Origin: Vulcanimicrobiaceae bacterium
GTDB taxonomy: Bacteria; Vulcanimicrobiota; Vulcanimicrobiia; Vulcanimicrobiales; Vulcanimicrobiaceae
Length of the DNA: 64,000 bases
Direction: 5' to 3'
Assembly: GCA_035938175.1 (NCBI GenBank)
Contig: DASZHD010000046.1
Location: 9,294-73,293, forward strand
In this document: one piece after another, positions 1,241 to 11,309 of the stretch
How the letters are laid out: each line of letters begins with the position of its first letter
How positions within the stretch are numbered: the stretch's first letter is position 1
Notes under the pieces: model-generated
Told to the model about the DNA's origin: nothing
Database searches by the model: none
What the model saw: the letters and a program-made list of their open reading frames with translations, nothing else
Made by a program: the position numbers and the translations under genes

Positions 1241-1474
1241 TCGTCTAGACGTAGTGGACTGGTGACCAGGCGCACCAATCTCGAAGACCGCGAGGACACT
1301 CGCGCGGCCCGAGTGAGGAAAGGTGAAATTCAAGGAGTTCGGCAGAACGGCGTGCATTTCGTAATGGCGATTGAACAACTCATGGGCGCTCGACATTCTT
1401 AGATGACCGTAATGTGCAATACTAACCGATTGGAAATCCGCATCGCCGACGCGACGCTTTACGTCACTTGCTTG

Positions 1475-1678
1475 CTATCGCGTGAGTGGTCGCGTGCGCC
1501 ATGCCATGGCGGTGGCGAGAGCAATGCCCATGGTCCCACCCAAACCTACGGCACCGATAACGTCCGTCGTTCGAAAGTTGCCGTTTGCACCGGATGCCAA
1601 ACCTACCACTAAACCGGCGAGCGCGGCACAGCCAAAGATGCAACCGCCGATTAGGAGTAAACGCCCACTACCCGACAT
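1475..1678 (-). CDS. small Gly-rich membrane protein (hypothetical)
   Basis: 67-aa ORF with glycine-zipper-like hydrophobic segments (LLLIGGCIFGCAALAGLVVGLASG; GAVGLGGTMGIALATAMA). Confidence 0.35.
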   Translation of the reverse strand: MSGSGRLLLIGGCIFGCAALAGLVVGLASGANGNFRTTDVIGAVGLGGTMGIALATAMAWRTRPLTR

Positions 1679-1736
1679 GGTTTATGCGACCTCCGCTTTA
1701 ACAGCTGTGACGATCGATTTCACACAATAGGACGAT

Positions 1737-1846
1737 GCCCCTTCGATTCCTCCGGTGGTTCGATGCGCGAGCACGACGAGTTATGCCCTTCGATTCCTCA
1801 GGGTGCTTCGATACCTCAGCATGACAGGCGATTCCTCACCATGACA
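1737..1846 (-). repeat. 49-nt repeat family, 2-3 degenerate units in reverse orientation
   Basis: cccttcgattcctcagggtgcttcgatacctcagcatgac is the reverse complement of the unit seen at 13784, 20021 and 63595. The flanking copies are degenerate. Confidence 0.8.
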
Positions 1847-1854
1847 AGTGGAGG

Positions 1855-2634
1855 CTATTCGCCCGCTGGAATGATGTACGTCGGCGGCGGAACGACCGGC
1901 TCTCCTACTTCGAGCACGATCCCCTGATGCGCGCGTAGCGGAATTGCGCGCAGATCGCCGTCGTACGGCTGCCCGTTCACAAATGCGGTTACTTTGCCTT
2001 TGAACGGCCCTACTTGATCGCGGCTGAGCGGCTGTCCCCAGATGTCGAAGAACATGCCCACCGTGTACGGACCGCCGTTGGGTGCGTTGACGTCGCCGGC
2101 TTCAATGTGAATGATGCCGCTGGCATCATGCGTGTGCAGCCAGTACAAACAGCTGCCGTTCGGCGAGAGCGGCTGTAGCGCAAAGCCGATATACGGCGGA
2201 ATCTGCAAAGGCGAACCGTCGACCATGATCGCGAGGTGGCTGTGAACGTGCAGTTGGACCGCCTCGGTCGTGGCGCATGGAATGCCGTCGACGAGCTGTC
2301 CGTGTCCGCCGCTTGCGGTGTCGGGCAGAATGCCCTTTTGCGGATTCGGCGTCGGTAATCCGAAAATGGGTTTTCCGACGGGCTGGCCGTTCACGAGCGC
2401 GATCGGTTTGGTCGTCGGCTGCGGTCCCGGCGTCGGCGTGGAATAGTCGAACGCCAGCGCTTTCGCGCGAGTCTGATTCGAAATGAAATTGGATATGCCG
2501 AAGCCGGCGAGCACGAGCACGATCACGATGGCGAACCCGATGTAGATCGGCGTCATGGGATCGCGTTTGGCGGGCGGCGGCGTCGCGCCGCCGCGCGTGG
2601 TTCTGCGGCGCTCTGCGCGGCTTGGCTGGCTCAT
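1855..2634 (-). CDS. membrane-anchored exported protein, HTHD-motif family (paralog of 10047..11087)
   Basis: 259-aa ORF with an N-terminal TM anchor (IYIGFAIVIVLVLAGFGI). The C-terminal domain carries CLYWLHTHDASGIIHIE and FFDIWGQPL..QVGPFKGKVT, matching CFYELHTHDPSGAIHVE and FLALWGIPV..QFGPFNGPIT in the 10047 ORF. Confidence 0.65.
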   Translation of the reverse strand: MSQPSRAERRRTTRGGATPPPAKRDPMTPIYIGFAIVIVLVLAGFGISNFISNQTRAKALAFDYSTPTPGPQPTTKPIALVNGQPVGKPIFGLPTPNPQKGILPDTASGGHGQLVDGIPCATTEAVQLHVHSHLAIMVDGSPLQIPPYIGFALQPLSPNGSCLYWLHTHDASGIIHIEAGDVNAPNGGPYTVGMFFDIWGQPLSRDQVGPFKGKVTAFVNGQPYDGDLRAIPLRAHQGIVLEVGEPVVPPPTYIIPAGE

Positions 2635-3725: not shown

Positions 3726-6152
3726 TTAGAGCGGCGCCGTCATGCGGAACAGAATGCTCGCGCCTTGCGAGTACTGCGTCGTGTTGAAGCCGTTCGCGAT
3801 CTTGATGATGTAGCGATCGTTGAACAGATTCTGCACGTCCAGATCGAAGCCGACGCTCTTATCGCCGTTTCGGCCCGGATCGCGGCCGATCGAGAAGTCG
3901 GCAGTCAGGTGGGTGGGCAGCGTTCCGCTGAAGCCCACGGGTTGACCGTCCACGAAGCCCTCGAAATTCACCGGATACCCCGTGCCGTATTCGCCTTGCA
4001 GCGTCGCAAAGTACGCCTTGCGATCGCCGAAGCGGTGCGTGAACGCGGCATTCACCGCCACGGCCTGGCTGTGATCTTCCGGCGCGAGCTGACCGATGAG
4101 TTCCTGCGTCGTGCCGCCCGAGGAACCCGGCGGGAAGAGGAACGTCGATCCGGAGATTCCGGCCGCCAGCGATTGCGACCACGTCCCCGACAAGAACCAC
4201 GAATCCGAATCCGGCAGCGTTTCTTGCAGGCGCAGTTCGGTGCCGTGCGCGCGGCCGATCGAGTTATTGAACACGGCGAAGAGCGGCGTGTTCAGCAACT
4301 GCGTGGTGTCGAGCACGTTGCTGACGTTACGATTCCACTGGTTCAGATACCCGGTGAAACGCGGCGAGAACGTGTGCGCGAGGCCGAACTCCGAGTAAGA
4401 ATCCGTTTCGGGTTTCAGATCGTACACCGGCAGCGTGGAGCACCCTTGCAGCACGACGCAGGCGTTTCGCACGTCTTCGAGCTGCGGCGCAGCGTAGAAG
4501 CGTCCGTAGTACGCGTGTACGACGTTCTTGGAGTCCGCAGCGTAATTCACGCCGATACGCGGGCTGATTTGATCGCCGCCGACGTATCCCGTCGAGTGAT
4601 CGTAGCGAACGCCGTAGCTGAACGAGAGCTGTTGCGACGGAGTCCATTTGTCTTCCGCGTAGATTCCCACTTGCGTGCCGGCTTGGTCTTGCCCCGTCGT
4701 GTTCAGCGACAGCGACGTGGGTGGCGGCAGCGGATAAGTTCCGGTCAACGTCGCGCAGCTGGGATCGTAGCACGCGAACGTCTGCGAGGCTTTGAAGATC
4801 TCGCGGCTGGCGTCGACGCCGACTTTGAACGCGTGATGCTGCGTCGCGCGGAACTGCGATGCGCGCAGACCGACGTAGTTCGCCACACGATCTTGACTCA
4901 GGCCGATTCCGCTTTGATAGGCCGTCGCGTTCGGATTAGTGCAGAACGAGGGAACCGGATTCAAATTACCGCACGGCCCCAGATTCTGGAGCGCGAGCAC
5001 GTCGTTCGGCAGATCGCCGGCGTACGCAATGCGCGTGTAGCGCACCCACGGAATCAGTTGGAAGATTCCGTTGCCGTCTTTGGACGCGGAGGTAAAGTTC
5101 AAACTGGCGTAGCGGTCGTATTCGCGCTGCACGTCATCCGTTCCGGGAACCGCGAAAATGGGATTCGTCGCGTCGTTAGGATTCGTGTTGATCGGAATTT
5201 GGAACTGCGCGAGCTGATTCGAAAAGTCGAACGCCAGCGACTGCCGGTCGTTGAAGGTGGTGATCGTGCGCAGGAATTCGTCCGCCTGCGAGGAGTTGTC
5301 GTGACTTTGCACGATCGTCGGCGAATCGAGGCCGCGATCGGAGACTTGCGTGTTGGCGTTGAGGAACACTTCGGTCTTGCCGATCCTGGCGGCGTTGTCG
5401 AAGCTCTCCAGCAATTGCCCGTAGTTGCCGCTGCCGGCCGTGAAGTAACTTTGATAGGGAACGGTGAGATCGCTCGCGCGGTTGCTGATGATATTCACGA
5501 CCGCGCCCTGGCGGCTGCCGCCGTACTCCGCCGGCATTGCGCCGGTGAACACTTCGAGCGAATCGATGTTCTTGGGGTCGAGAAGTTCCGCGAAGTTGGA
5601 ACTGGTCGCCTGCGGCAGCGGCGCGCCGTCGATCTCGTACGTTACGCCGTGAAAACCATGCGCAACCGGTTCGTTATACGAGAATTTCACGATGCCGGGC
5701 ATCGTTTCGATGAGACTGTTCAAACTATTGTTTGCCGGCAGCGCCGCAATTTGCTGGCGCGTAACGTTGTTCACCGATACGGGGGTACCGGTAACGCCGG
5801 CGTGCGCGGTTACCTGCGCGCTGGCGATCGTCTTGACTTGACCCAGCGCGACGTTGAGCGTAAGCACCTGATCCGAAGCGACTTGGATCTGCTGGGATTG
5901 CTGCGGTACGCCGGGATACGACGCGGTCAGCGTATACGTACCGAACGGCACTTGCGAGAATACGTACGCACCCGTGTTGTCGGTCGTGCGTGAGAGCGTA
6001 GACCCCTCGCCGGTCAGCGTTACGGACGCGCCCGCGACGGGCTTACCGCTGACGGTAACCGTTCCGCGTACCAATCCGGTAGTTGCGGCGAATGCCGGGA
6101 CGGCTATGAATGTGATGAACGCGGCAAGCAGTGCCGCAAGAATTCGAGACAT
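3726..6152 (-). CDS. TonB-dependent receptor-like outer-membrane protein with N-terminal carboxypeptidase-regulatory-like domain
   Basis: 808 aa. Signal peptide (AFITFIAVPAFA), then a CarboxypepD_reg-like segment (GLVRGTVTVSGKPVAGASVTL...GTYTLTASYPG), a plug-like region (EIDGAPL, IDSLEVFTGAMPAEYGG) and a long beta-rich C-terminus ending in an aromatic-rich strand. Confidence 0.85.
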   Translation of the reverse strand: MSRILAALLAAFITFIAVPAFAATTGLVRGTVTVSGKPVAGASVTLTGEGSTLSRTTDNTGAYVFSQVPFGTYTLTASYPGVPQQSQQIQVASDQVLTLNVALGQVKTIASAQVTAHAGVTGTPVSVNNVTRQQIAALPANNSLNSLIETMPGIVKFSYNEPVAHGFHGVTYEIDGAPLPQATSSNFAELLDPKNIDSLEVFTGAMPAEYGGSRQGAVVNIISNRASDLTVPYQSYFTAGSGNYGQLLESFDNAARIGKTEVFLNANTQVSDRGLDSPTIVQSHDNSSQADEFLRTITTFNDRQSLAFDFSNQLAQFQIPINTNPNDATNPIFAVPGTDDVQREYDRYASLNFTSASKDGNGIFQLIPWVRYTRIAYAGDLPNDVLALQNLGPCGNLNPVPSFCTNPNATAYQSGIGLSQDRVANYVGLRASQFRATQHHAFKVGVDASREIFKASQTFACYDPSCATLTGTYPLPPPTSLSLNTTGQDQAGTQVGIYAEDKWTPSQQLSFSYGVRYDHSTGYVGGDQISPRIGVNYAADSKNVVHAYYGRFYAAPQLEDVRNACVVLQGCSTLPVYDLKPETDSYSEFGLAHTFSPRFTGYLNQWNRNVSNVLDTTQLLNTPLFAVFNNSIGRAHGTELRLQETLPDSDSWFLSGTWSQSLAAGISGSTFLFPPGSSGGTTQELIGQLAPEDHSQAVAVNAAFTHRFGDRKAYFATLQGEYGTGYPVNFEGFVDGQPVGFSGTLPTHLTADFSIGRDPGRNGDKSVGFDLDVQNLFNDRYIIKIANGFNTTQYSQGASILFRMTAPL

Positions 6153-6215
6153 GAATCTTTCCTTAAACGCAGTGAGATGGAAACGGAGAAAAGCGTCCGG
6201 ATGGACGCAGCGCGT

Positions 6216-6722
6216 TTAAGCGAAAGCCGGCGGAGGCCGGGAGAAGAGCCGAAGTGTGTGCGCGGTGGAACGCGAGGGCGCACACGTGTATGGAGCGCGA
6301 GAAGCCTGCCGTGGCGCAGGCGAAAAGACGCCTGTCAGAACTGCGACGATCGCGGCAAACGTTTGCGCGAATGCGAGCAACACGACGCGCACCAGCCAGG
6401 ACGCGAACGCGACCGCAACGGCCGCCGCTAAAAATGAAACGGCGTGAGACTGCTCGCACAGCTCGATGCCGGCAAACCATGCTGCCGCGCCGCCCGTCAT
6501 CGCGAGCAGATGGATCCGCGGCGATTTCCAGCGGCGAACCGCAGCAACGGCGGCCAAAAGCGTGGCGAAGAATGCGAACGACGTGCCGAGCGAGAGCGCG
6601 GCACCGTGCAAGGACCCGGCGAGCGTATGCTCGTTGCCGAACAACAGGACGTGCGCGAGCAGCGCTGCGGGCAATCCCAGCAACGCGGCGTAGCCGAACT
6701 TCCTGATGCTCGTCACTATCAC
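6216..6722 (-). CDS. polytopic membrane protein (hypothetical)
   Basis: 168-aa ORF with about 4 hydrophobic helices. Its start overlaps the stop of the upstream multicopper oxidase by 4 nt, which suggests an operon. Confidence 0.5.
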   Translation of the reverse strand: MIVTSIRKFGYAALLGLPAALLAHVLLFGNEHTLAGSLHGAALSLGTSFAFFATLLAAVAAVRRWKSPRIHLLAMTGGAAAWFAGIELCEQSHAVSFLAAAVAVAFASWLVRVVLLAFAQTFAAIVAVLTGVFSPAPRQASRAPYTCAPSRSTAHTLRLFSRPPPAFA

Positions 6723-8167
6723 GAGCGGTAAACGACCTCGGTTCGCATCCCGTCCATCATATGTATCTCGTTATGGCAATGCAACAGCCACCGTCCGGGC
6801 GGTGAATCCGCCGTAAAATGCCATGTTGCTGTCCCTCCATGCGCCCGCACCAGGGCCGTGTCCTTGGGGAGCGGCCTAAGCAGCGGTTTGCCGTCCACGC
6901 TCGTTAAACGAAAAACATGCCCGTGCAGATGCATCGGATGGTCCATATCCGTCGTGTTCTTGAAATGAATCGTCACGGCGTCGCCGCGTGTGACGAAAAT
7001 CTTCGGGGTGTGCGGATACGTTTTGCCGTTTATCGTCCACGCGTTGCTGCCGTAGGCGCCGCCCCCAAGTGTAAAGTTGTAGTCATGCTGAGGCGTCTTG
7101 TCATGCTGAGGCATCGAAGCACCCTGAGGCATCGAAGGGCCAACTCCCCCCGCCCCCTCGTACGTAAAGAACTCAACGCCTTCCAGGGTTTGCGGGCTCG
7201 CGGCGGGCGCCGCATTTTCGAAGCCCTCGGTATAAACGACGGCCGCCTGCTGATACGCGGTCGGTTCGCTGGAGAGACCTTGCAATAGCCAAGCACCGGG
7301 TTTTTGTACTTCGAACCACGCGTCGTACCGTTCGGCGACGCCTATACGCAACGCATCGACCGTCACGGGCGCTTCAAGACGGTTCCCGTCCGTGTGCGTT
7401 ACGGTCAGACGATGATCGGCCAGACGCACGTAACGCGTCTGCGTCGGGTTCGCATTGAGAACGCGCAAGCGCACGCGCTGTCCGACTTTCACGGGAAGTT
7501 TTTGCGTTGCCGGATACGACCGGCCGTTGATGCAATGCGCGACGTACGCAACTTCGTCGCCCATTTTATCGTTGGGCTCCATCTCGCGCATTTCCGGAGA
7601 ACCGATAGGATCCACCATCGGCGCGCCGCTTACGCCCATCATCGCCTGCTCGATCGTCGGCAAATTCGGCACGTCGTGAAAGACGAGCGCAAACTCCGCG
7701 TCGTAGTGCTCGTCGTTCGGATCTTCCACGACGATCAATCCGAAGAGCCCGCGCGGCAAGCCGCCGCCCACGTGATCGTGATACCAGCGCGTTCCGGCCG
7801 GCTGCGCGACGAAATCGTACAGAAACGAATCGCCGCTGGGCACCGGCGCCTGCGTAATATCTTCAACGCCGTCCATGCGGTTCGGAAGAATCATTCCGTG
7901 CCAGTGAACCGTAGCCGGTTTGCCGCTGGAGTTCACGAATTTCGCGCGCAACCGCTGCCCTTGCGCGACGCGAATGACCGGCCCCGGAATGCTGCCGTTG
8001 AACGCGAGGAGCGGATACTGCATGCCCGGCGCCGGCGAAAATGCAATCGGTGCTGCGGTTAGCGTGTAGTCCAGCGTGTCTTCGGCCAGCGCCCGCGCCG
8101 GCAGCCGCGGTACTGCGAGCGCGGCCATCACGCCCGCACTTCGCGCCAAGAAGACGCTGCGGCGCAT
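6719..8167 (-). CDS. Tat-exported multicopper oxidase
   Basis: All four copper-ligand motifs are present: HWHGM, WYHDHV, HPMHLHGH and HCHNEIHMMDGM. There is a twin-arginine leader (MRRSVFLARSAGVMAALAVP). I place the start at the internal ATG at 8167, where TAATG overlaps the upstream stop by 1 nt. Confidence 0.9.
   Translation of the reverse strand: MRRSVFLARSAGVMAALAVPRLPARALAEDTLDYTLTAAPIAFSPAPGMQYPLLAFNGSIPGPVIRVAQGQRLRAKFVNSSGKPATVHWHGMILPNRMDGVEDITQAPVPSGDSFLYDFVAQPAGTRWYHDHVGGGLPRGLFGLIVVEDPNDEHYDAEFALVFHDVPNLPTIEQAMMGVSGAPMVDPIGSPEMREMEPNDKMGDEVAYVAHCINGRSYPATQKLPVKVGQRVRLRVLNANPTQTRYVRLADHRLTVTHTDGNRLEAPVTVDALRIGVAERYDAWFEVQKPGAWLLQGLSSEPTAYQQAAVVYTEGFENAAPAASPQTLEGVEFFTYEGAGGVGPSMPQGASMPQHDKTPQHDYNFTLGGGAYGSNAWTINGKTYPHTPKIFVTRGDAVTIHFKNTTDMDHPMHLHGHVFRLTSVDGKPLLRPLPKDTALVRAHGGTATWHFTADSPPGRWLLHCHNEIHMMDGMRTEVVYRS
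7082..7142 (+). repeat. 49-nt repeat family copy inside the multicopper oxidase CDS
   Basis: gtcatgctgaggcgtcttgtcatgctgaggcatcgaagcaccctgaggcatcgaagggcc. It is read through in-frame on the minus strand as GPSMPQGASMPQHDKTPQHD. Confidence 0.8.
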
Positions 8168-9984
8168 TATTGCCCGACGTTCAGCGGCACAGTCATGGTT
8201 TGGCCGTCGTACTGAACGCGCACGGTCCACGGACCGCCCATCGAAAACACGACGCGTCCCGTGAACAGATGCGGATCGGAAGCGGATTGCGTGAGCGTCA
8301 CTTCGCGAGTCTGCATCGTGCTCGCACCCATTTGCATGATCGGAAGAACGCTGACGCTCTTCGGCGGAGTTCCTGGGAACCGGATCGATATCGTCGCCAT
8401 GTCGGTCGGCACGGCGGGATCGAACGTTACGACGGGCTTCGTGCCCGCCGAGCCGCCGTCCAAATTCGAGAGATACGTGACGATGCTCGAGACTTGATCG
8501 GTGGTGAAGCCGAAGTTCGGCATCGGCGGCTTAGGATTCACGATTGCATTTGCAATTTGCTCCGCGGTGAGCTTGTGCTCGATTCCGAAGAGCGCCGGAG
8601 CAACGCCGCCGCCGTGCAAACCCGCGCCGTGACAGCCTTCGCATCCGTTTGCCTGCACCAGCTTCGCACCCGCGTCAGCCGAAGCGGCGCCGGTTACGGC
8701 CTGCGGACTCGCCGACGGAACGGGCGCGGCACTTGGATCCGGGGGCGGTGCATTTGCTGCGAGCGTTTGGGCAGACGCCACGTGCAGGTTGGAAAGAAAG
8801 CGGCGGCCGTAGTCATACGGGCCGCCGTACGCCATTTGAAACGCGATCTGCGGACGCTGTCCCGGATATGTTGCCAGTTCGCCGATCAGCGCCAGGTTCG
8901 GTAAGACGTTATGCGCGACGTCCGCGACGACTTGCCGCGTCAGTGTGTCGCTCGAGGCAACGTCGTAGCGGAGTAACAGGTGGTTGCGCCATCCCAAATC
9001 GCGTTCCGCCTCGAAAAAGAATCCGTTCAACGGCACGTCGTACGCGCCGATATCCGGATTCGCGTCTTGCCCGTGATAGTACATCGATTGATAGTGCCAT
9101 GCGTCGGTTTGGTAAGCGAAATAGACGCCTTCGCGCGTGAAGGGCTGGGTGCCCAAGAACGCGCCGCTTGCCGGGTCGTTCAGCGGCGACCATCCGCGCA
9201 TGCCCACGAGCCCGACGCTCCAAGGAATGGACATGCCCCCGTACGACACGTTGAGGTCGATCGCGCGCGGATTGTTGGCCTGGTTGTAATCCAGTGCGTC
9301 GCCCGTGGAGCCGCTGCCCGTTAACCACGACACATTGTACATGAACTCGTTGGACATGCCGTTGAAGGCCGCGCCCCACCGCGCGTCATTGGGATTGAAC
9401 TGATTCTGGCCCGTGGTCTGAGCCGCGAGCAAATACGGGCTAATCGTCCACGCGTGGGCCGGCATAAACGGAAACGGGGTGTGAAATTTGCCGACCTGGA
9501 TCGAATTCGTGCCGTGCAGCAGGCCGTTCCAGGATATCCAGACCTGTTCGGTCTGCCCGATGACGCCGGAATCGATGACGTGCTGTTCGGCGTACCACGT
9601 AAAGTTGCGTCCCAAGAATCCGCCGCCCAGAAGCGAGAGGTCGGAAACCATCGTGCTTCCCGGATGATCTTTGTTTGCGAGGATCGATTGAATGTACAAG
9701 CGCGCTGAAATCGGGAGCGCGCGATCTTGCAGATGCCGGTTCAGGATTTGAAAATTCGACATCATGACCATCATGCCGTAGCGCGTCATTCCCGGAAACG
9801 TCGTGTGACAGGTTTCGCACGAAATGCCTTGCCCGTTGGCAAACACCGGAATAGCATCGGCGCGCTGCGCTGGAATGAATGCGAGAAGTGCGGCGGCGCC
9901 GAGTGCGCGCAGAACCGCAGCGTACGATGGGTGCATGGAGTGCCTCCGCGAGAATTCAGGCGCGTTCGCGTCGTAGGTTTCCAT
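8167..9984 (-). CDS. multidomain c-type cytochrome: N-terminal heme site, beta-barrel-like region, class-I cytochrome c domain, YtkA/FixH-like domain
   Basis: 605 aa. Signal peptide (ALLAFIPAQRADA) with CETCH directly after it. A region of about 380 aa rich in alternating aromatic/Gly strands follows, then a Pro/Ala linker. A second heme site CEGCHG has a downstream PPMP Met ligand region. The C-terminal Ig-like domain has a Met-rich segment (LPIMQMGASTM...GGPWTVRVQYDG). Confidence 0.75.
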   Translation of the reverse strand: METYDANAPEFSRRHSMHPSYAAVLRALGAAALLAFIPAQRADAIPVFANGQGISCETCHTTFPGMTRYGMMVMMSNFQILNRHLQDRALPISARLYIQSILANKDHPGSTMVSDLSLLGGGFLGRNFTWYAEQHVIDSGVIGQTEQVWISWNGLLHGTNSIQVGKFHTPFPFMPAHAWTISPYLLAAQTTGQNQFNPNDARWGAAFNGMSNEFMYNVSWLTGSGSTGDALDYNQANNPRAIDLNVSYGGMSIPWSVGLVGMRGWSPLNDPASGAFLGTQPFTREGVYFAYQTDAWHYQSMYYHGQDANPDIGAYDVPLNGFFFEAERDLGWRNHLLLRYDVASSDTLTRQVVADVAHNVLPNLALIGELATYPGQRPQIAFQMAYGGPYDYGRRFLSNLHVASAQTLAANAPPPDPSAAPVPSASPQAVTGAASADAGAKLVQANGCEGCHGAGLHGGGVAPALFGIEHKLTAEQIANAIVNPKPPMPNFGFTTDQVSSIVTYLSNLDGGSAGTKPVVTFDPAVPTDMATISIRFPGTPPKSVSVLPIMQMGASTMQTREVTLTQSASDPHLFTGRVVFSMGGPWTVRVQYDGQTMTVPLNVGQ

Positions 9985-10046
9985 GAAAAAGCGCTCCGTT
10001 CATTTCCGGAGCGCTTTTCGTGTCAACTACCGGGCATTCGAAGACG

Positions 10047-11087
10047 CTAATACTCGTCCCAGAATGCAACGTTAGGGAGCGATGCTCCGGTAGGATTGCC
10101 CGACCCGATCAGCACCCAAATCACTTCGTGCGAATACAACGGAATCTGCCGCATGTCGCCGTTCCAAACGGTATACAGGTTCGACGGTATCTCCGGCATG
10201 CCGTAATGCCCGCCGCGCCCCTGTTGGCCGGACGTGTACACGGTGATCGGTCCATTGAACGGGCCGAACTGCGACGGACCGACCGGAATGCCCCACAGCG
10301 CCAGAAAATCGCCGAGCGTATAGATCGTCCCGTCTTGCGAGACGCCGTTGGGGTTTGACGATTCGACGTGAATCGCGCCGCTTGGATCGTGGGTGTGCAG
10401 CTCGTAGAAGCAGCCCGGCTGTCCCGGATTTTGCGAGTTGTACGAATATTGCGTCCAGTTGGGGATGCCTTGATACGTGATGTCGCCTTGCGGATCGGCG
10501 ATCCCGACGCCGTCCGGCACCGCGATTTCGGAACCGTTGTAATAGACACCGAGGAACGCGTGCACGTGGTATCCCGGCGGTATCGGTCCGCTGTACATAC
10601 TCGAAAGACACGGAACGTTGTCCGGTCCGAACGTCGTGTTTATCGGACCCTGTCCGCCCGCAGGATAGTCTCCGTCTCCCGGATCTTTTCCGATTCCCTG
10701 CGTGAACAGGTCGTCGGTTCCGTTGACTTCACCGTGACCGTTTGTAACCGTCAGCGTGCCGTTCGGCGTCGGTGTTACGCCGGGCGTGGGTGTGGGCGTC
10801 GGCAGCGGCGTGGGCGTGACGACCGGTGTGGCGGTTGGAAGCGGCGTCGGCGTTACCGCCGGCGTTGCCGTGGGCGCGGGGCTTGCCGATCGCGCCGGCG
10901 TGGGACTGGATGCCGGCGAGGCGGACGTGCCCGGCGACGGGGTCGTCGAAGGACTTCCCGTCGGGCCTCCGCCAGGATTGGGAGACGGCCCGCCGACGGG
11001 CGGGCCGGTTCCGCCGCCTCCGCCGCACGCAGTAAGCAAAGCCAGAATAGCGCCAAGGGCGGCGCCGACGGTCACAGTACGACGCAT
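10047..11087 (-). CDS. lipoprotein with Pro/Thr-rich linker and HTHD-motif domain (paralog of 1855..2634)
   Basis: Lipoprotein signal with lipobox (MRRTVTVGAALGAILALLTAC) at the internal ATG at 11087. A long PT-rich linker (TPTPLPTATPVVTPTPLPTPTPTPG) follows. The C-terminal domain is shared with the 1855 ORF. Confidence 0.7.
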   Translation of the reverse strand: MRRTVTVGAALGAILALLTACGGGGGTGPPVGGPSPNPGGGPTGSPSTTPSPGTSASPASSPTPARSASPAPTATPAVTPTPLPTATPVVTPTPLPTPTPTPGVTPTPNGTLTVTNGHGEVNGTDDLFTQGIGKDPGDGDYPAGGQGPINTTFGPDNVPCLSSMYSGPIPPGYHVHAFLGVYYNGSEIAVPDGVGIADPQGDITYQGIPNWTQYSYNSQNPGQPGCFYELHTHDPSGAIHVESSNPNGVSQDGTIYTLGDFLALWGIPVGPSQFGPFNGPITVYTSGQQGRGGHYGMPEIPSNLYTVWNGDMRQIPLYSHEVIWVLIGSGNPTGASLPNVAFWDEY

Positions 11088-11309
11088 ACTAGCGTGATCG
11101 TAGCGGCGGCCTGTCAGAAAAAAGAGGTGCCGCGGGGGCGCCGCGGCTCCCCCAATCGACGGCCCTCCAGTGACCTTGGGCCCAATCGCGCGAACCCCGG
11201 AACCCGGGCTCTCGCGGCCGGGTCCAAAGGCGTGATAGAGAGACAAGGGGTGCACTTGCGCCCACGTCTAATATGGGGCGCCCACCCCCGAGAAAAGAGC
11301 TGACGCGTC

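Follow-up and report, generated by a model that had tools for sequence, protein, structure and literature searches.

The locus described here raises the question of why a gene for a putative outer-membrane cytochrome should share a base with the gene for a multicopper oxidase (MCO), and what the two products might do together. It lies in a 64,000-nucleotide stretch of DNA (the window; positions 9,294 to 73,293 of contig DASZHD010000046.1) from the Vulcanimicrobiaceae bacterium assembly GCA_035938175.1 and contains, head to tail on the minus strand, genes for a cytochrome–barrel fusion protein, the MCO, a 168-aa hydrophobic protein and an 808-aa TonB-dependent receptor. The host is a soil-dwelling member of the Eremiobacterota; its genome (3.7 Mb, 95% complete) encodes BamA, and an outer membrane is therefore expected. 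The initial annotation had interpreted these genes together as a unit for electron transfer or for metal oxidation and uptake. The architecture of the fusion protein and its conserved linkage to the MCO suggest an undescribed route by which electrons from outside the cell might reach O2. Coordinates given below refer to the window and to its minus strand unless another locus or strand is indicated.

The fusion protein is encoded by a 605-aa open reading frame (ORF; 8167..9984). A GGAGG sequence is located 7 nt ahead of the second in-frame ATG at 9936, and the public copy of the protein (P0005, 100% identical, 589 aa) begins at that ATG; the true start is therefore M17, giving a gene at 8167..9936 and a product of 589 aa. 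In this four-part product, a signal peptide with a CETCH haem motif is followed by a porin barrel, then by a cytochrome c domain of class I and finally by a domain with an Ig-like fold. The Sec signal peptide (MHPSYAAVLRALGAAALLAFIPAQRADA; 9853..9936) was recognized by inspection from its positive N-region, hydrophobic core and ..RADA ahead of IPVFA, and its position is kept in the 40 orthologues aligned. The adjoining haem-1 region (IPVFANGQGISCETCHTTFPGMTRYG; 9775..9852), in which a variant motif (AxPxFA + NGQ) precedes CxxCH and PGM, is invariant in the same orthologues. The motif CETCH (9805..9819) starts 12 residues into the mature protein, close behind the signal peptide as the initial annotation had placed it, and is the sole CxxCH of the Cyc2-like part; the second CxxCH belongs to the added C-terminal domain. 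A Met-rich helix, YGMMVMM, is found just after the haem-1 motif.

The middle of the protein, which had been called porin-like, was modelled by AlphaFold2 with the 40 orthologues as 16 antiparallel strands at residues 76-372 of the 589-aa protein (8821..9711; pLDDT mostly 70-90), and the soluble fold that would have spoken against a porin did not appear. The top matches of this predicted outer-membrane beta-barrel in the PDB, as found by Foldseek, are the 16-strand porins OmpU, Omp32, PorB, OmpF, OprP and OprO (E down to 1e-11), including OprP 2o4v and OprO 4rjw, the structures cited for Cyc2. No Pfam or NCBIfam family, CopB included, matched the barrel region (residues 45-425), and a sequence search of the PDB with the whole fusion protein returned cytochrome c fragments only.

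Since the number of barrel strands is even, the polypeptide should return to the periplasm after the barrel, as in OmpA-type proteins, and its C-terminal domains should be periplasmic. The class-I cytochrome c domain that the initial annotation had recognized behind the barrel was confirmed by Pfam (PF13442, E 1e-10; 8470..8682, residues 435-505 of the 605-aa ORF) and by an NCBIfam match to c550/c551-type cytochrome c (E 1e-10 to 1e-11). It contains the haem-2 motif CEGCH (8629..8643) and a Met in PMP as the likely distal ligand, and none of the 40 orthologues departs from either CxxCH motif or from the PMP Met; both sites are predicted to carry haem. A separate AlphaFold2 model of the last 178 residues (pLDDT ~90) shows a small cytochrome made of helices and, behind it, an Ig-like sandwich of seven strands. 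The sandwich occupies the last ~90 residues (8170..8439) and had been described as a Met-rich YtkA/FixH-like domain, a description that holds in part. Its match to Pfam YtkA (PF13115; E 1.2e-3, 19.9 bits) is below the cut-off of 25.9 bits, although E values under 0.01 were obtained for 16 of 38 orthologues (best 1.1e-4), and 'Met-rich' is generous for a domain with three invariant Met residues (PIMQMG, FSMGGPW). The fold is generic Ig-like, and the Foldseek matches are generic Ig folds only (PD-1 and similar), apart from CrdA, a copper protein, at E ~1e-3; this last match is too weak to fix the function of the modelled sandwich.

The proposed Cyc2-type layout was likewise borne out in its homology and its porin, and not in its strict signature. 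Cyc2 proteins are defined as having a minimum length of 365 aa, a signal peptide, a single CxxCH with AxPxFAR[Q/K][T/Y] upstream of it and PxL four residues past it, and a 16-strand porin (Keffer et al. 2021, PMC8406198). The fusion protein, which reads ADA-IPVFANGQGIS-CETCH-TTF-PGM, has the signal peptide, a single near-N-terminal CxxCH, AxPxFA at the Cyc2 spacing (six residues from FA to Cys) and a 16-strand porin of sufficient length, and is homologous to proteins with the canonical motifs. However, NGQ replaces R[QK][TY] and PGM replaces PxL, with Pro correctly placed, and both replacements are invariant in the family; PxL does occur in paralogues that share the FANGQG variant. Neither of the two signature motifs tested being present, the protein was not filed as a strict Cyc2. 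When residues 17-425 were used as a phmmer query against 1.8 billion representative proteins, 207 were retrieved, most of them 370-450 aa long and ~30 with the full PxFAR[QK][TY] motif (best P0149, E 2.4e-17). The cluster names of the distant relatives were tried as a clue to identity and discarded, all of them being 'hypothetical protein' or unnamed. Alignment of the family profile with that of 24 canonical-motif proteins by hhalign gave a probability of 100% and an E value of 1.3e-38 over 367 columns (2-371 versus 7-427), extending from the signal peptide to the last barrel strand. In addition, a 31%-identical paralogue with the FANGQG variant resides on contig k99_46640 (locus L068) of 'MAG 15', a name that appears among the leaves of the Cyc2 tree published by Grettenberger and Hamilton (PMC8357290). 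Judged from these sequence relationships, the N-terminal ~370 residues are a divergent Cyc2-like cytochrome-porin of the Cyc2 superfamily. The protein resembles Cyc2 of Acidithiobacillus ferrooxidans and Cyc2PV-1 of Mariprofundus ferrooxydans in its signal peptide, in the placing of CxxCH and AxPxFA and in a porin akin to OprO/OprP-type and general porins, but differs from them in the two motifs, in the YGMMVMM helix, in ~200 extra C-terminal residues that hold the second haem site and the Ig-like domain, and in its partner gene, which here encodes an MCO rather than rusticyanin, Cyc1 or a haem-copper oxidase.

The MCO gene (6719..8167) follows without a gap: the stop codon of the fusion gene and the ATG of the MCO gene share one base (caaTAATGcgc), and the two genes are predicted to be translationally coupled. 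The features previously listed for its 482-aa product, a Tat signal and four copper motifs, were all read in the sequence, as was the TAATG overlap itself. The twin-arginine signal MRRSVFL is kept as RRxFL in the orthologues, the three cupredoxin domains match PF07732, PF00394 and PF07731 with an axial Met, and all four motifs (HWHG, HDH, HPMHLHGH and HCHxxxHxxxxM) are present. Every copper ligand is invariant in 38 orthologues, leaving the type-1 and trinuclear sites intact. The best NCBIfam model is copper_res_A (CopA; TIGR01480, E 1.3e-56), although the score of 192 bits is far under the 479-bit cut-off, and the nearest relatives of known structure are laccase-like bacterial enzymes of small size, the Met-rich Thermus MCO 2xu9 among them. 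The family and structure searches run showed no particular resemblance to the Mn oxidases MnxG, MofA and MoxA. The MCO of this genome also contains an insert of ~9 codons (..SMPQGASMPQHDKTPQHD.. / ..GASMPQHDKTPQHD..; 7082..7142) that is missing from 37 aligned orthologues. The stretch SMPQGASMPQH within it was considered as a copper-binding repeat and rejected as specific to this genome, and the insert is, on the alignment, not part of the conserved machinery.

Linkage of the two genes was surveyed with one genome per species, yielding 69 loci, all but one of which are labelled Eremiobacterota/Vulcanimicrobiota or 'bacterium'. Fifty-one orthologous loci reach the end of the cytochrome gene; four of these stop at the contig edge, and 47 have downstream sequence. 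In 46 of the 47 (50-80% identity), an MCO gene begins 3-20 nt past the cytochrome gene. The sole orthologous locus truly without it is L040 (3198..5076), where an epimerase gene comes directly after the cytochrome gene. A sister clade in the Eremiobacteraceae, 34-37% identical, encodes a barrel with two cytochrome c domains and no YtkA-like domain, followed by a related two-domain MCO. This arrangement occurs in three genomic contexts with wholly different flanking genes, one of them adjoining aa3 oxidase genes, and the fusion and MCO genes overlap by 4 nt in two. Because the sister-clade pair recurs in three unrelated contexts, the cytochrome-porin and MCO genes are taken, from gene order, to move as a unit, and the conserved cytochrome–oxidase linkage that the initial annotation had left to a neighbourhood survey is present in both clades. 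Two further arrangements were noted among these loci. Protein P0306 (854 aa) of the sister clade combines cytochrome c and Cu-oxidase Pfam domains and is either a true cytochrome-porin–MCO fusion or a call merged across the 4-nt overlap, and the contig of L038 has a second cytochrome c + YtkA-like module (1326..1823) upstream of its fused gene.

A survey of 301 species genomes of the phylum showed how the pair varies. The fusion was found in ~39 genomes, and ~25 have only a protein of 200-240 aa that corresponds to the C-terminal cytochrome c and sandwich. This barrel-less cytochrome c + YtkA-like gene adjoins the MCO gene in all 16 genomes sampled. Two barrel-less loci, L083 (6364..6870) and L084 (6111..6641), have the same flanking genes as the window and keep remnants of the N-terminal region (..SA-APVFA.. 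and ..H-ATFPGMTPY..) joined directly to the pre-cytochrome c linker, one of them with the signal peptide and APVFA; to judge from these junctions, they are clean in-frame natural deletions of the barrel of ~1.1 kb. In the MCO tree, barrel-less forms fall inside groups of fused ones at least 4-5 times, and MCO-only forms make up one clade and a singleton. Among 62 sampled loci with downstream sequence, the cytochrome gene stands beside the MCO gene in all but L040. The fusion is thus probably ancestral, with the MCO as the constant element and the cytochrome-porin as an optional input, and lineages appear to have dismantled the module repeatedly, losing the barrel first and the cytochrome afterwards.

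The order of domains and genes can be read as a wire. By analogy with its Cyc2 homologues, the barrel haem would take electrons from a dissolved reduced metal, most likely Fe2+, and the electrons would hop to the fused periplasmic haem and from there to the type-1 copper of the MCO, a periplasmic enzyme that would turn O2 into water. The YtkA-like domain might dock the cytochrome on the MCO or supply the enzyme with Cu(I). A downhill order from haem through class-I cytochrome c and type-1 copper to O2 is plausible for these cofactor classes. For Cyc2PV-1, a haem potential of +208 mV was reported (PMC8406198), and CtaK/YtkA, in which His and Met are conserved, serves as a copper chaperone (PMC9145763). 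Such a chain from metal to O2 would be complete outside the cytoplasmic membrane and would suit detoxification, consumption of O2 or protons, or the conditioning of iron better than energy conservation. We consider the chances about even that the proteins connect an external metal, probably Fe2+, to O2 in this way; which metal is the substrate and in which direction electrons flow is what we infer from the sequences. A stricter form of the proposal, that the pair is a self-contained extracytoplasmic metal:oxygen oxidoreductase in which the MCO acts as a soluble cytochrome c oxidase at the end of a path from Fe2+ through haem and cytochrome c, is put forward more tentatively, as somewhat less probable than its negation. 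A described parallel is the rus operon of A. ferrooxidans (Cyc2, rusticyanin, Cyc1 and aa3 oxidase), which likewise leads from an outer-membrane haem through periplasmic copper and cytochrome c carriers to O2, as proposed here; the other Cyc2-like genes of the host genome also adjoin cupredoxins. In the present system, however, the cytochrome c is covalently joined to the barrel, and the proposed O2 reducer is a soluble MCO and not a proton-pumping membrane oxidase.

Several observations weigh against such a wire. MCO orthologues were identified in 89 of the 301 genomes, ~25 of which gave no cytochrome match, and no CxxCH gene was found near the MCO gene in 10 of 12 sampled genomes of this kind. 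MCOs require no protein electron donor, and a cell conserves no energy by reducing O2 in its periplasm. The AlphaFold2 model is of low confidence around the N-terminal haem (pLDDT <50), and the departures from the Cyc2 signature fall on either side of this haem. To our knowledge, Fe(II) oxidation has been demonstrated for only a few canonical Cyc2 proteins, and the transfer of a substrate by homology is therefore weak. Moreover, copper rather than iron is indicated by a conserved Met-rich loop of the MCO near residues 175-205 (APMxDPxGSxEMxxMxPxDKMGDE), by the Met-bearing YtkA-like domain and by MxxM-type linkers in relatives.

Copper handling is accordingly the main rival explanation, and we regard it as possible, if on the unlikely side. 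The pair would then be a copper-homeostasis module like CopAB/PcoABC, in which the MCO serves as a periplasmic cuprous oxidase and the YtkA-like Met domain presents Cu(I) to it as PcoC does to PcoA; the haem-barrel would replace PcoB, exporting copper or oxidizing Cu(I) at the surface, and the hemes would be an auxiliary electron sink or a sensor. Such a role agrees with the copper_res_A assignment of the MCO, but that match lies far under its cut-off, and no CopB/PcoB, CopC or CopD family was detected by Pfam in these proteins. It also agrees with the Met-rich loop and the relationship to 2xu9, with the MxxM-rich linkers of relatives, with the CrdA match, with the weak YtkA match given the chaperone function of CtaK/YtkA (PMC9145763), and with the persistence of self-sufficient MCOs where the cytochrome has been lost. 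The sister clade, in contrast, combines its MCO with two cytochrome c domains and has no YtkA-like domain, and for this reason haem, not the copper domain, appears to be the constant partner of the MCO. A porin with a periplasmic MCO is the known layout of PcoAB, a pair that has itself been proposed as a candidate for iron oxidation (He et al. 2017, PMC5566968), and the present locus shares with PcoAB/CopAB an outer-membrane barrel gene and a Tat-exported Met-rich MCO of the CopA subfamily by best NCBIfam match. Yet the barrel is homologous to Cyc2 and not to PcoB, having 16 strands and a haem motif in place of the 10-12 strands of PcoB; here the barrel gene comes first and carries a fused cytochrome c, and the two invariant haem sites are without a role in known Cop/Pco systems. 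Comparison with CtaK (YtkA) and c550/c551 of Bacillus subtilis leads to a similar mixture. The C-terminal extension matches both types, YtkA weakly and with conserved Met, but forms one polypeptide on an outer-membrane barrel, with an MCO and not a caa3 oxidase as partner, and its YtkA match is sub-threshold.

The remaining alternatives leave the haem-barrel or the gene pair with a different part. The same wire might be fed by Mn(II), by a humic or phenolic compound or by another reduced species of acidic peat or soil, in which case the MCO or the haem-barrel would oxidize Mn or phenols. A part in Mn(II) lithotrophy has been suggested for the Cyc2 homologues of Ca. Manganitrophus (PMC9040806), MCO and cytochrome genes are paired as MofA/MofC in Mn oxidizers (PMC5566968), and the record titles of many relatives point to peat, palsa and fen metagenomes. 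A monohaem at ~+0.2 to +0.3 V would, by general redox chemistry, hardly be able to oxidize Mn(II), however, and the MCO is a compact three-domain protein of the small laccase-like type with no particular similarity to MnxG, MofA or MoxA; MofA-MofC and OmpB-type pairs do link an MCO gene to a haem-motif gene in metal-transforming bacteria, but their MCOs belong to a large extracellular family, there is no porin fusion, and no sequence relationship to them was found here. We rate another donor as rather improbable. A comparably low probability is assigned to a purely accessory function, in which the cytochrome c + YtkA-like extension would assist maturation or regulation of the MCO by copper loading or redox poising and the barrel would be a mere outer-membrane anchor. 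The frequency of barrel-less versions, the existence of MCOs alone and the function of CtaK/YtkA in copper-centre assembly are in line with it, but every form that has the barrel keeps its haem motif unchanged, a conserved Cyc2-type haem would be needless in an anchor, and the sister clade does without the YtkA-like domain. That the adjacency is only inherited gene order without functional coupling seems to us very improbable. All orthologues do come from one phylum, and synteny often extends to the epimerase and orf259 genes nearby, but the start and stop codons of the pair overlap or are no more than 20 nt apart, the pair recurs in the three unrelated sister-clade contexts and stays together while the TonB receptor and small membrane-protein genes vary, and surviving cytochrome genes lie beside the MCO gene in the sampled loci, all but L040.

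In the literature searched, we found no account of a conserved Cyc2–MCO operon or of a Cyc2-like barrel to which cytochrome c and a YtkA-like domain are fused, in agreement with the initial impression that this is not a known system, while Cyc2 hits in Eremiobacterota have already been listed in metagenome papers (PMC8357290, PMC13594681). The locus can thus be regarded as a conserved, undescribed variant with a plausible function. Cyc2 is the main metagenomic marker for predicting iron oxidation, and Eremiobacterota (Baltobacteraceae) have recently been called iron oxidizers on Cyc2 alone (PMC8357290, PMC13594681). The Cyc2-like proteins of this phylum differ in architecture, carrying a predicted periplasmic electron acceptor as a fused domain, and the present family is tied to an MCO, not to an oxidase of respiration. 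If electrons are indeed passed from metal to O2 by this pair, they would be burnt in the periplasm, and predictions of lithotrophic growth based on Cyc2 would be wrong for these organisms; an MCO would take on a terminal-oxidase role, and microbial iron oxidation would gain a new branch that is independent of membrane potential. The pair would also offer a compact three-cofactor system (haem, haem and four coppers) for studying electron hand-over from Cyc2, with the natural barrel-deletion variants as ready-made controls. Copper handling, if true, would likewise be new, the barrel then being a haem-bearing counterpart of PcoB.

Barrels joined to periplasmic redox carriers are not confined to this family. 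Protein P0142 (513 aa) consists of a Cyc2-like barrel and a C-terminal cupredoxin with a CuA-type site (HCAILCGAGHENM), with no catalytic part of an oxidase or N2O reductase in the same polypeptide, and in P0128, P0131 and P0139 the barrel is joined to one cytochrome or to two. Such joining is, on these domain architectures, a recurrent theme in the superfamily, and an electron-transfer role for the C-terminal extension is thereby supported. The host genome itself encodes three further Cyc2-like proteins of 393, 372 and 379 aa on contigs C30, C53 and C59 (L075, 6982..8525, minus strand; L076, 7653..9343, plus strand; and L077, 5670..9266, minus strand), in which AxPxFA is followed by KAY, HQY or QRY. 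One each adjoins a gene for a CuA-type cupredoxin, for a plastocyanin-like protein followed by a two-component system, and for a YceI-like protein. In a second Eremiobacterota family (L053-L068), a FANGQGG-type barrel is combined with MxxM-rich linkers (MAGMPGMAGMPGM) and with another kind of C-terminal cytochrome domain. The neighbourhoods of this family contain no conserved partner gene, the recurring 'clusters' being mostly spurious overlapping ORFs, and reports of 'Cyc2' in the phylum from acid mine drainage probably refer to it. Two proteins of ~1040 aa, P0250 and P0263, combine a methyl-accepting-chemotaxis-type protein with a C-terminal Cyc2-like haem-barrel and represent either a true fusion or a merged call.

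Downstream of the MCO gene, the small polytopic membrane protein (6216..6722), an accessory part of the unit, starts with a GTG that overlaps the MCO stop codon (tcGTGAtag), as the initial annotation had pointed out; its 168-aa sequence matched no family in Pfam or NCBIfam. The TonB-dependent receptor (3726..6152), which has an N-terminal CarboxypepD_reg domain, is present on the same strand as had been described, but a terminator-like hairpin with a T-run (6193..6208) intervenes between its gene and that of the small membrane protein. For this reason the receptor is placed outside the unit, which probably comprises three genes bracketed by hairpins, with the receptor as a neighbour in a separate transcription unit. 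The upstream bracket is a GC-rich hairpin at the end of the preceding gene (GCGCTCCG, an 8-nt loop and CGGAGCGC, then TTTTT; 9986..10014), which stops just short of the first ATG of the 605-aa ORF and was picked up on the plus strand as well. Both the small membrane protein and the receptor occur in ~17 of the orthologous loci, about a third, a linkage so variable that, with the hairpin ahead of the receptor gene, they were rejected as core components, and the 'uptake' part of the function once suggested for the unit is left unsupported.

The cluster is flanked on both sides by genes for two paralogous exported proteins without a family match (10047..11255 and 1855..2634). They share ~30% identity across the C-terminal ~200 aa and a His/Asp-rich HTHD motif. 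Copies are found at equal relative positions in many related loci, and the cluster may therefore be part of a larger metal-related neighbourhood.

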